Source of the DNA: Escherichia phage DCP548 | Strand: one strand, 5' to 3' | Sequence record: PQ671645.1 | DNA length: 64,000 bases | Made by a program: the position numbers and the translations under genes | In this document: positions 30,740-59,883 of the stretch, piece after piece | Position numbering within the stretch: the stretch's first letter is position 1 | How the letters are laid out: each line of letters opens with the position of its first letter | The notes under the pieces: model-generated | The model's input: the letters and a program-made list of their open reading frames with translations, nothing else | Databases searched by the model: none | Told to the model about the DNA's origin: nothing

Positions 30740-31209
30740 TTTAAACTCTTTCTAAGCTGCTTTTTGAATGAAGCTATTAATTGTGTTTTGGTATCAGATT
30801 CATTATATTCAAATCCTCTTTGAAGCATCTCAGCCATCATTTCCTCTTTACCTAGTCTTGAGAACTCTTTAGTTTTGTCTGGAACAAAATTAGGATGGAT
30901 ATTATTATCAGAATAATCTTGTTTCAAATAAGCAAGAAGAGCTTCAAGCCATTCGAGGTAGTCGACATCACGTCCTTTAAGACCGGAACGGTTGAACTTA
31001 TGCTTCATTTGGCCTTCTGCTGCGTTGCACAGATTACAGAGTAATCCACGAACTCTACCGGCTTTTGGCCCGTTTAATTCATGGTCGTGGTCAAGATGGT
31101 TACCTTGAACATCAGGGTCTAATTCACGGTGGCAAATAGGACACTTACCATTCTGTGCATCATAAAATTTTTGTTTTTCTTCTTTGTATAATTTGCCAGA
31201 TAATAACAT
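30736..31209 (-). CDS. 49: endonuclease VII (Holliday-junction resolvase) gp49
   Basis: 157 aa; MLLSGKLYKEEKQKFYDAQNGKCPIC...HLDHDHELNGPKAG matches remembered T4 endo VII. Confidence 0.93.
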   Translation of the reverse strand: MLLSGKLYKEEKQKFYDAQNGKCPICHRELDPDVQGNHLDHDHELNGPKAGRVRGLLCNLCNAAEGQMKHKFNRSGLKGRDVDYLEWLEALLAYLKQDYSDNNIHPNFVPDKTKEFSRLGKEEMMAEMLQRGFEYNESDTKTQLIASFKKQLRKSLK

Positions 31210-31215
31210 AATAAA

Positions 31216-31245
31216 CCCTTACCATATTAGATAAGGGTATTTATA
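31216..31245 (-). promoter_or_regulatory. gene 49 leader hairpin overlapping a late-promoter-like TATAAATA
   Basis: Stem CCCTTA...TAAGGG at 31216..31237 next to the RBS; minus-strand TATAAATA at 31245..31238. Confidence 0.5.
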
Positions 31246-31247
31246 AT

Positions 31248-31427
31248 TTAATAAATGTTATAAAAGTCACGATGGAAACGTTTGTATTGGCGAATCATTC
31301 TTTTAGTAGGACGTGTTACCGAAATGATTGAAGTCCTCATGTTCGGATTGTTTGGAGCACCAATTATAACAAATTTCCAAGATTTTTGACCGTTTGTTCT
31401 TTCGCCAAAAAATAATGCAGTTTTCAT
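31248..31427 (-). CDS. small basic protein, paralog-family member (59 aa)
   Basis: Hand-found; ...VTRPTKRMIRQYKRFHRDFYNIY; below track cut-off. Confidence 0.4.
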   Translation of the reverse strand: MKTALFFGERTNGQKSWKFVIIGAPNNPNMRTSIISVTRPTKRMIRQYKRFHRDFYNIY

Positions 31428-31436
31428 AATAAGCCC

Positions 31437-31850
31437 TTAACTTAAACGTCTTTCTAAATATTCAATGTATTCCGCTGCGGCTTGCATCAGATTACCTTCA
31501 TAACCGTCATTATTTTCTTGGGCGGCTAATTTAGCTAAAGCATAAGAAATACGTTCACCTTCGAATTCGCCAAGTCCACCATCACAAACTACTTGGTCAA
31601 TTTCTTCGAGTTCATCTATTGAATGGGATTCCCAGAAGCACCAAAGAGAAGTATCACGGTCATAGATGCAAAGTTTCTCACCTGTGTTCAACATCACTTC
31701 GATAATGCCATGGTCGCCATAACCATCTTCGGTAGTAGTACCAATTACCTTGATGATCGTATCTTTCTTTAATTCAGGAAACTTATCTTGGAGTTCTTCG
31801 TCTTCTTTAACAATCTTGAACCATTTACCGCGAGTTTCAGAAATATTCAT
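31437..31850 (-). CDS. hypothetical acidic protein
   Basis: Track ORF trimmed to ATG at 31850 (MNISETRGKW...) because the upstream part overlaps ORF 31852..32049. Confidence 0.45.
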   Translation of the reverse strand: MNISETRGKWFKIVKEDEELQDKFPELKKDTIIKVIGTTTEDGYGDHGIIEVMLNTGEKLCIYDRDTSLWCFWESHSIDELEEIDQVVCDGGLGEFEGERISYALAKLAAQENNDGYEGNLMQAAAEYIEYLERRLS

Positions 31851-32049: not shown

Positions 32050-32150
32050 TTAATTCATTTATTGAAGGTTCATCATAACACGTTTCTTCGTCATTGTAAA
32101 CTGTTTCGACGTCTGGCTCGACTGTCTCCCATCGAGCCGAATACCACGGT

Positions 32151-47685: not shown

Positions 47686-47821
47686 ATGTTAGGTCCTTCG
47701 ACTCGCTATGTAAACCCATTACCGCATTGCGCTCGACCTTATTACAGGTTGGAAAAGGTACATCACTCAGAGGACTCGACGTTCATAAGGAGAGGTTGCG
47801 TTTCCCTTTATTAGGCAAGAA

Positions 47822-59083: not shown

Positions 59084-59752
59084 TTACACTATAGAAGCAA
59101 TTAAATTGTTTACTTTATCATCTTTATAAACTTCAGAATAGTGGAGTTCATAAATTTCCCAGCCCAGGGATTTTATAATATCATGTCTTTCCTGATAATA
59201 TGGGGCCAGAATTTTCTTGTTATGATCGGAGTAATGTTGGTTACCGTTAACTTCAATAATTATTTTCTTATCCATCAAAGCAATGTCACAGGAATATGCT
59301 CTATTTTTAACAGGTTGATATTCCTCAACAAATTGTATATTTGCTTCTATTAATTTATTTTTCAAAAATTCGCACGGAACAGATTTGAATTTTGAATTCT
59401 TTTTCCAAGGGTGTTTATCTGGATTTTCCTTTAACCAGGTCTTCCGGGCTGCTGATATCTTTTGTTTGGATTCAGACGAATGCTTTCGTCCTGTGCCTGC
59501 AGCAGACAATTTTTCTCTTGTTTCTTCAGAAACAACTAAAGAAATGCCCTTCTTTTTGGCAACCATGAATTGATTTAAATTACCAGATTCTTTGCGTGCT
59601 TTATTCATAGCAGCGACTGCATTTTTAGAACCCTCTTTATAAGAGGCGAGTTTTGGATTTTCAGAACACCATCTGGTATGACTTGCCATCCATCCCTTTG
59701 GTTTATCAGAAATATCAAATTCTTTATTGCAGTGTTTGCAGATGCTCATCAA
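59084..59752 (-). CDS. homing-endonuclease-like protein (zinc finger + NUMOD3-like repeats + DUF559/PD-(D/E)xK-like C-terminus)
   Basis: 222 aa; N-terminal CKHC...HTRWC; SEETREKLSAAGTGRK and SESKQKISAARK NUMOD3-like repeats; C-terminal YSCDIALMDKKIIIEVNGNQHY. Confidence 0.5.
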   Translation of the reverse strand: MMSICKHCNKEFDISDKPKGWMASHTRWCSENPKLASYKEGSKNAVAAMNKARKESGNLNQFMVAKKKGISLVVSEETREKLSAAGTGRKHSSESKQKISAARKTWLKENPDKHPWKKNSKFKSVPCEFLKNKLIEANIQFVEEYQPVKNRAYSCDIALMDKKIIIEVNGNQHYSDHNKKILAPYYQERHDIIKSLGWEIYELHYSEVYKDDKVNNLIASIV

Positions 59753-59808: not shown

Positions 59809-59883
59809 TGGTGACCCTGGCTGGTTTCGATCCAGCTACCTATCAGTTATGAGCTGACAGCTCTCCCATTGAGCTACAGGGCC
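59809..59883 (-). tRNA. tRNA, anticodon CAU (Met or Ile2), with encoded CCA
   Basis: Hand-folded cloverleaf on minus strand: acceptor GGCCCTG/CAGGGTC, D-arm GCTC-AATGGGA-GAGC, anticodon loop CTCATAA, T-arm GCTGG-ATCGAAA-CCAGC, 3' ACCA. Confidence 0.7.

Follow-up and report, generated by a model that had tools for sequence, protein, structure and literature searches.

The gene 49 leader of Escherichia phage DCP548 is very probably an orthologue of the T4 promoter-switch translational gate and keeps a conserved register between late promoter box and hairpin

Introduction

Immediately upstream of gene 49, which encodes endonuclease VII, Escherichia phage DCP548 carries a short spacer in which a T4-type late promoter box runs directly into an inverted repeat. 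The question that this locus raises is whether the two elements together form a translational switch, whether the repeat serves another purpose, such as transcription termination, or whether it has no regulatory role. In T4, the Shine-Dalgarno sequence (SD) and/or the AUG of e, soc, 49 and I-TevI are buried within an RNA helix on transcripts that come from upstream promoters (PMC3014915), and the genes so gated are late genes that lie on long early or middle polycistronic transcripts (PMC2988022). For the gene 49 mechanism, the passage in Edgell et al. (PMC2988022) cites Barth et al. 1988 (Genetics 120:329; Powell, Trupin & Mosig). A preliminary description of the present sequence had stated that the same logic is reported for T4 gene 49, and both sources bear this out (PMC3014915, PMC2988022).

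The timing of gene 49 expression is of consequence, as endonuclease VII cuts branched DNA and its early synthesis could harm replicating or recombining phage DNA. Premature enzyme being possibly harmful, a delay until packaging would be biologically sensible. Additionally, the locus illustrates that a single segment of ~30 nt can carry a promoter, an anti-RBS strand and the RBS itself, with the choice of promoter setting translatability. It also bears on annotation, since many T4-like genomes carry the label 'terminator' at this stem, and others the label 'late promoter'. Here, we analysed the gene 49 leader within a stretch of 64,000 nt (64 kb) of the phage genome, hereafter the window, and compared it with its orthologues across the T4-like phages.

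Results

Gene 49 and its neighbours

The product of gene 49 matches Endonuclease_7 (PF02945, 5.5e-20) and Endonuc-dimeris (PF09124, the dimerisation domain of T4 endonuclease VII, 1.2e-32) in Pfam, and the gene order is that of T4, with pin upstream and nrdD downstream; the domains and the synteny with T4 gene 49 thus confirm that the ORF downstream of the hairpin is endonuclease VII, as had been proposed (Table 1). The coding strand at the locus is the minus strand, and nrdD overlaps gene 49 on its downstream side. On the upstream side, pin, an ORF of 59 aa belonging to DUF7279 and gene 49 are co-oriented and contiguous. The stop codon of the 59-aa ORF (31250-31248) lies 2 nt ahead of the late box, and read-through transcripts would enter the hairpin from this ORF. 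A second DUF7279 paralogue, of 65 aa, is located beyond pin, and the C-termini of the two paralogues are alike.

Table 1. Features of the gene 49 locus and of two further gated or putatively gated loci in the window (positions in the 64-kb window)
Feature	Position	Strand	Basis or remark
Gene 49, endonuclease VII, 157 aa	30736..31209	-	Pfam and annotation of homologous records
Candidate MotA-type middle promoter, GCTT-N15-TATAAT, for nrdD	30802..30826	-	Inside gene 49; annotated in SA79RD
Hairpin 3' arm, GGUAAGGGU	31215..31223	-	
Gene 49 Shine-Dalgarno sequence, UAAGG	31217..31221	-	Wholly in the 3' arm; distance to the AUG 7 nt
Hairpin loop, UAAUAU	31224..31229	-	Variable among phages
Predicted late start, +1 ~31232 +/-2	31230..31234	-	Box position and the -13 to -6 rule; within the 5' arm
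Hairpin 5' arm, ACCCUUAUC	31230..31238	-	Begins with the last A of the box
T4-type late promoter box, TATAAATA, positions -13 to -6	31238..31245	-	Exact match
59-aa ORF, DUF7279, RB69ORF087c-like	31248..31427	-	Upstream of gene 49
pin	31437-31850	-	Upstream of the 59-aa DUF7279 ORF
Second DUF7279 paralogue, 65 aa	31852-32049	-	
Candidate early sigma-70-type promoter, TTTACA-17-TATGAT with upstream TG	32072..32100	-	Sequence scan
Lysozyme gene e module, ATG 50061	50093-50047	-	Pfam Phage_lysozyme
221-aa ORF, ATG 59749	59084-59749	-	NUMOD3 and DUF559/Vsr-like nuclease matches (E ~1e-5)

A candidate early promoter of the sigma-70 type, for which the SA79RD record gives a T4-early-like promoter at the homologous site, could supply transcripts that read through pin and the 59-aa ORF and on to the hairpin, and a terminator scan found no other terminator-like site between this promoter (32100-32072) and the hairpin. 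We infer that read-through transcripts exist in this phage. Inside gene 49, the candidate middle promoter for nrdD is composed of GCTT (30826-30823) and TATAAT (30807-30802); its T4 counterpart is PnrdD (P49.1), which is credited to Barth 1988. Genes of the late transcription machinery are present in the window as well, namely those for gp55 (25020-24463, 100% identical to JS09) and gp45 (19575-18889), with gp33 lying outside it.

The 801 nt around gene 49 are 100% identical to Escherichia phage vB_EcoM_JS09 (Mosigvirus, RB69 group), and the window as a whole is ~97-98% identical to its nearest records, PNJ-6, JS09 and ST0. The identity is 97-98% over 1-25 kb, and the part from 39 to 64 kb aligns in 7-8 pieces with 92-94% coverage, which indicates a mosaic Mosigvirus genome, mosaic in its right-hand part.

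The late promoter box and the hairpin

From the stop codon of the 59-aa ORF to gene 49, the spacer on the minus strand reads AT TATAAATA CCCTTATC TAATAT GGTAAGGGT TTATT ATG. A T4 late promoter is defined by an 8-bp box at positions -13 to -6, with A or T at -13 and no -35 element required, and the box in this spacer is an exact match. Placing it at -13 to -6 puts the predicted late +1 of this phage at ~31232, which falls within the hairpin's 5' arm, and the predicted late RNA would retain at most three of the nine bases of that arm. The homologous site in SA79RD, with the same box, is annotated as a late promoter. The number of occurrences of TATAAATA is evidence neither way, as the 64-kb window holds five exact copies against 7.5 expected, that is, no over-representation, with all five on the coding strand. 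On its 3' side the box is followed by CCCTTATCTAATAT, namely CCC and then A/T-rich sequence. T4 late promoters tend to have an A/T-rich segment just downstream of the box, and the CCC, which contrasts with this usual richness, counts against a late promoter. The T4 gene 49 promoter shares the CCC and is identical over this segment.

The hairpin into which the box runs has nine base pairs, four of them G-C, and a folding energy of -12.7 kcal/mol (z = -3.83), which none of 200 dinucleotide-shuffled sequences equalled. The preliminary description had placed a stem CCCTTA/TAAGGG beside the RBS of gene 49. This stem (31237-31232 / 31221-31216) is real and is located at the RBS, but it is only the core of the longer 9-bp stem, and the SD, UAAGG, actually lies inside the 3' arm rather than beside it. 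The start codon itself had been thought to be embedded in the hairpin, which does not hold, as the ATG (31209-31207) sits 5 nt past the stem. The late promoter that had been said to overlap one arm is present as an exact box, but its overlap amounts to A31238 alone; what counts is that the predicted +1 (~31232) falls within the 5' arm, rather than the overlap of box and arm. The Rfam search placed no family at the gene 49 leader, its three matches all being far under the gathering scores.

Energetics of the ribosome-binding site

The cost of opening the RBS was calculated as the energy required to keep positions -14 to +3 unpaired, both in a long RNA spanning -120 to +40 and in a late RNA starting from -23. 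For gene 49, this cost is 14.69 kcal/mol in the read-through RNA and 6.15 kcal/mol in the RNA from the predicted late +1. Gene 49 thereby ranks fourth among the 95 genes in the window both for the cost and for the relief, the medians being 5.0 kcal/mol (sd 3.0) and 0.7 kcal/mol, respectively; the top of the 95 for opening cost is the lysozyme gene e, with 17.4 kcal/mol. Thermodynamic modelling thus supports the earlier proposal in both its parts, namely that transcripts from upstream would fold and occlude initiation, the opening cost being 14.7 kcal/mol, and that late transcripts starting inside the stem would be translatable, the cost dropping to 6.2 kcal/mol. The late RNA of gene 49 can form a weak alternative helix of -6 kcal/mol, which is not significant (z = -0.4), and therefore the unmasking of the RBS would be relative, not absolute. 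The computed switch recurs in 19 of 19 reference phages, in which the opening cost is 11.2-18.1 kcal/mol in the long RNA and 3.0-6.2 kcal/mol in the late RNA.

Conservation of the pairing and of the box-to-stem register

The stem and the spacer of T4 are identical to those described here, and its loop and box differ. Among T4, SA79RD and JS98, the loops differ and the stem is identical. The arrangement is also found, with differing stem sequences, in 22 reference phages that span many genera, and in 17 of 18 reference phages the stem opens exactly at the last A of the box.

Covariation was assessed in 11 distinct sequences, using an alignment of the segment from the box to the 3' arm in which the stems are in register. 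In this alignment, 97.2% of the cells are paired, vs 39-55% in controls with the partner shifted by 1-3 columns. Both partners have changed in four of the ten pairs (17 cells), one U.G pair never varies, and the covariation score is 0.385 vs 0.118 in shuffles, with 0 of 500 shuffles reaching 0.385.

Additionally, IMG/VR was scanned with a gp49 alignment, which yielded 78 loci with 59 distinct upstream regions. A TAAATA box is located 17-33 nt from the ATG in all of these 59 regions, and in 55 of them a stem of -7 kcal/mol or lower starts exactly at the last A of the box, with 25 different 5' arms being represented. The gene starts of the window served as control: a TAAATA box occurs 10-45 nt upstream of four of the 95, and the box-stem register over an RBS is found at two, those of gene 49 and lysozyme gene e only. 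The orthologous hairpins carry an SD-like GAGG, AAGG or GGAG in the 3' arm or the loop, and in the Aeh1-type phages the box is CTAAATA, which is the reported late consensus of the Aeh1 lineage. The box and the hairpin are each unremarkable alone, and their combination is rare. Comparison of the leaders shows selection on the pairing and on the register between box and stem. We found no prior documentation of the conserved box-stem register at gene 49, the comparable comparisons in the reviews covering only genes e and 25.

These data bear directly on whether an A/T-rich spacer has acquired TATAAATA and an inverted repeat by chance, with no regulatory role. Such a coincidence could draw on the box being found five times where 7.5 are expected, and on the ~28 loci on the minus strand of the 64-kb window that form equally stable hairpins in a 28-nt fold. 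It is nonetheless exceedingly improbable, since compensatory changes preserve the stem across genera, the box in 59 of 59 regions and the register in 55 of 59, with 25 arms, stand against two of 95 genes in the window, and the T4 stem is identical despite a rearranged neighbouring gene.

The strand on which the fold is stable addresses a different kind of explanation. The inverted repeat exists in the DNA, where it might form a cruciform recognised by endonuclease VII, or the plus strand might carry a sigma-70-like promoter that drives an RNA antisense to the 59-aa ORF and pin, as suggested by a 10/12 match, TTACCA-17-TATAAT (31219-31247), that overlaps the hairpin and the late box. We hold a DNA-level or opposite-strand element of this sort to be very unlikely. 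Promoter-like matches were found at chance level (14 vs 11.8 expected), for which reason the plus-strand promoter was rejected, and this match probably stems from the A/T richness of the box. With an arm of 9 bp and a loop of 6 nt, the repeat is poorly suited to cruciform extrusion. The conserved U.G pair turns into an A.C mismatch on the other strand, the antisense fold has -8.5 kcal/mol vs -12.7 kcal/mol for the sense fold, and the sense fold is the more stable one in 55 of the 59 loci. This excess stability of the sense strand points to an mRNA structure rather than to a DNA cruciform or an antisense RNA, and both of the latter readings were rejected on the strand asymmetry.

An mRNA structure could also be an element for processing or stability, such as a protective stem at a 3'-end or an RNase target, instead of a translational gate. 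Stable 3'-end stems shield messages from exonucleases, and the paper on T4 gene 49 is said to mention possible processing near the hairpin. Such a role, which we rate as highly improbable, leaves unexplained that the SD always lies within the stem and that the late box always opens the stem; moreover, a reading of the sequence of the gene 49 stem and loop revealed no GGAG RegB motif in either.

A possible terminator role of the stem

The only serious rival to a translational gate is that the hairpin is mainly an intrinsic (Rho-independent) terminator, which would close an early operon of 49.1, pin and the 59-aa ORF, thereby shielding gene 49 and nrdD from early transcription, the occlusion of the RBS being incidental. 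The stem together with UUUAUUAU does pass a lenient terminator scan (9 pairs, 4 G-C, tail TTATTATGTT), the RB69 orthologue '49<--RB69ORF087c, 9 bp' has a TransTerm confidence of 98 (PMC1524935), several GenBank records annotate a terminator at this stem, and termination would be tolerable as nrdD can draw on the candidate middle promoter within gene 49. However, the U-tract is interrupted, just 5 nt ahead of the ATG, and in most genera the tract is merely the ATG followed by conserved Leu-Leu codons. In PS2, in the Miller/KP15-type phages, in Aeromonas 25 and 44RR and in the Aeh1-type phages, all of which keep box, stem and SD, no more than 1-2 of 8 tail positions are T, and the traits that are conserved, namely that the stem encloses the SD and stays in register with the late box, are not needed for termination. 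The stem is also poor in G+C (4/9) by comparison with the terminator family of the window, AGCCCCTT...GGGGCT, which reaches -14 to -16 kcal/mol, and T4 reviews describe read-through transcripts that bear the structure (PMC3014915). Termination as the main function of the hairpin is thus improbable. In a milder form, it may be a partial terminator as well as a translational gate, which is compatible with the best explanation. The comparative evidence says that the stem would be better read as a late promoter with a translational gate.

Other putatively gated or hairpin-bearing sites in the window

At lysozyme gene e, the textbook T4 case, a stem ACCUCCUAU/GUGGGAGGU of ~-13 kcal/mol starts at the last A of the box AATAAATA (50093-50086) and covers the SD. 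A further site belongs to the 221-aa ORF located directly downstream of tRNA-Met (59809-59883), at which TATAAATA (59784-59777) abuts a hairpin ACUCUUAU/AUAGGAGU that buries an AGGAG SD. Homologues of this ORF occur in only 36 phage records, with a best identity of 80%; they are often unannotated or stand under a tRNA-Arg label, and the distant ones are named homing endonucleases. The ORF is probably a free-standing homing endonuclease, gated like gene 49.

The RBSs of denV (ATG 49236; 49306-49222, minus strand), gene 1 (ATG 63153; 63223-63139, minus strand) and gene 55 (ATG 25020; 25090-25006, minus strand) have opening costs of 13.8-16.5 kcal/mol, and in all three the arm that pairs with the SD or AUG lies in or just upstream of a promoter of the sigma-70/MotA type, the arrangement at denV being GTTTAC-ttcctccaag...-TACTAT...cttggaggaa. 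Transcripts from these proximal promoters would be without that arm, and therefore the promoter-switch logic may extend beyond late promoters to non-late ones. At another site, AATAAATA (42386-42379) is followed by a hairpin GGAGGCC/GGCCUU of -12.1 kcal/mol (42386-42340, minus strand) in which the SD pairs with the beginning of the coding sequence; the predicted late +1 precedes both arms, and this hairpin would therefore persist in RNA from a late start.

Repeated hairpin loci of two families lie on the minus strand at 61374-61347, 53867-53840 and 52307-52280, and also at 58351-58324, 57808-57781 and 42046-42019. One family is a near-perfect 28-nt palindrome, GATAGG(A/G)CTATGTTATAGTAG(T/C)CCTAT(C/T), with TGTTATAGT resembling an extended -10 element, and the other is a terminator-like stem, AGCCCCTTCCGAAAGGTTGGGGCT.

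Discussion

Based on the sequence anatomy, the thermodynamics, the stem covariation and the box-stem register established in this work, the leader of gene 49 is very probably the orthologue of the promoter-switch translational gate of T4 gene 49. By analogy with the T4 literature, the gate would operate as follows. Early and middle transcripts would begin upstream, for example at 32100-32072, cross pin and the 59-aa ORF and reach gene 49. Both arms would be present in this read-through RNA, and the hairpin would hide UAAGG and lead to poor initiation by the 30S subunit, with little full-length endonuclease VII being made before replication. After the onset of replication, the RNA polymerase modified by gp55, gp33 and gp45 would use TATAAATA (31245-31238) and start at ~31232, producing a late mRNA without six of the nine arm bases, in which no hairpin would form and the RBS would be open. 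The junction-resolving nuclease would thus be made when it is needed for the debranching of DNA at packaging.

The feature is already known in T4 and is annotated in silico in RB69, the nearest model phage. The new content is modest and consists of the breadth and exact register of its conservation, and of the finding that the internal start of T4 is not conserved; otherwise, the analysis confirms textbook T4 biology in a relative. A broader picture, which we offer tentatively and as one possibility, combines these elements. The leader could be an ancient composite element with a near-invariant register, in which pairing in the anti-SD arm starts at the last A of the late box, in essentially every T4-like phage that encodes gp49, including the Aeh1-type, despite full turnover of the stem sequence. 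The T4 and RB69 lineages may have gained a partial-terminator role that insulates the pin operon from gene 49 and nrdD, and the nested 12-kDa gp49 could be a T4/T2-specific novelty, in which case most relatives would be without any endonuclease VII-derived protein from early transcripts.

Among the known systems, RB69 belongs to the same genus-level group and has a late promoter and a 9-bp stem at the orthologous position: Nolan et al. 2006 (PMC1524935, Additional files 5, 6) list a predicted late promoter, Pl:47792, and a 9-bp stem at 47738-47760, '49<--RB69ORF087c'. The difference is that this earlier work took the stem, by TransTerm score, for a terminator unconnected to the late promoter or to the RBS.

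The lysozyme gene e of T4 shares the principle that the late promoter encodes the 5' strand of a helix sequestering the RBS; its late promoters are located just upstream and give transcripts without the 5' part of the structure (PMC3014915, there with reference to McPheeters et al. 1986). In contrast, e and 49 are different genes, their stem sequences are unrelated, gene e has two late promoters in T4, and the ~100-fold effect is a measurement on gene e. The homing endonuclease genes I-TevI, I-TevII, I-TevIII, segB and mobE (PMC2988022) likewise have their RBS sequestered on read-through transcripts and produce late RNA without the 5' strand. They are mobile and selfish, whereas gene 49 is a core phage gene, and I-TevI autorepresses its promoter; at gene 49 we saw nothing suggesting an operator-type autoregulation.

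T4 gene 49 itself differs from the gene described here in several details. Its box is AATAAATA instead of the consensus TATAAATA, A at -13 being the commonest variant of T4 late boxes, and its loop is UAUUUAA instead of UAAUAU. Here, a separate and intact 59-aa DUF7279 ORF lies between pin and the box, whereas in T4 its last ~17 codons are fused to pin: residues 3-142 of T4 pin (L003 2898-3383) match the pin of this phage, and residues 144-160 correspond to the C-terminal end of the 59-aa ORF (65% identity, E 8e-7). T4 pin thus appears to be a pin::DUF7279 deletion-fusion that has retained the sequence just upstream of the late box. Additionally, the abstract of Barth and co-workers from 1988 reportedly speaks of an 18-kDa and a 12-kDa product and of a hairpin in early transcripts. 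In T4, the internal start is a GTG at codon 53 with the SD GGAAAG, giving a nested product of 105 aa. The corresponding sequences here are GTT (31053-31051) and GGTAGA, so the short isoform is probably not made in the T4 way, and the two-isoform arrangement of T4, with its short gp49, is probably not shared by this phage. Among 19 phages, a GTG with the GGAAAG SD is found in T4 and T2 only, KpnBM7 having the GTG without that SD, and T2 annotates a product from Met68, the next in-frame start of gene 49.

The likeness to T4 gene 49 extends over the whole leader. The two genes are orthologues in the same synteny, with an identical 9-bp stem, ACCCUUAUC/GGUAAGGGU, and the same spacer to the ATG; in both, the late box abuts the stem, the SD lies in the 3' arm, and the middle promoter of nrdD is located inside gene 49.
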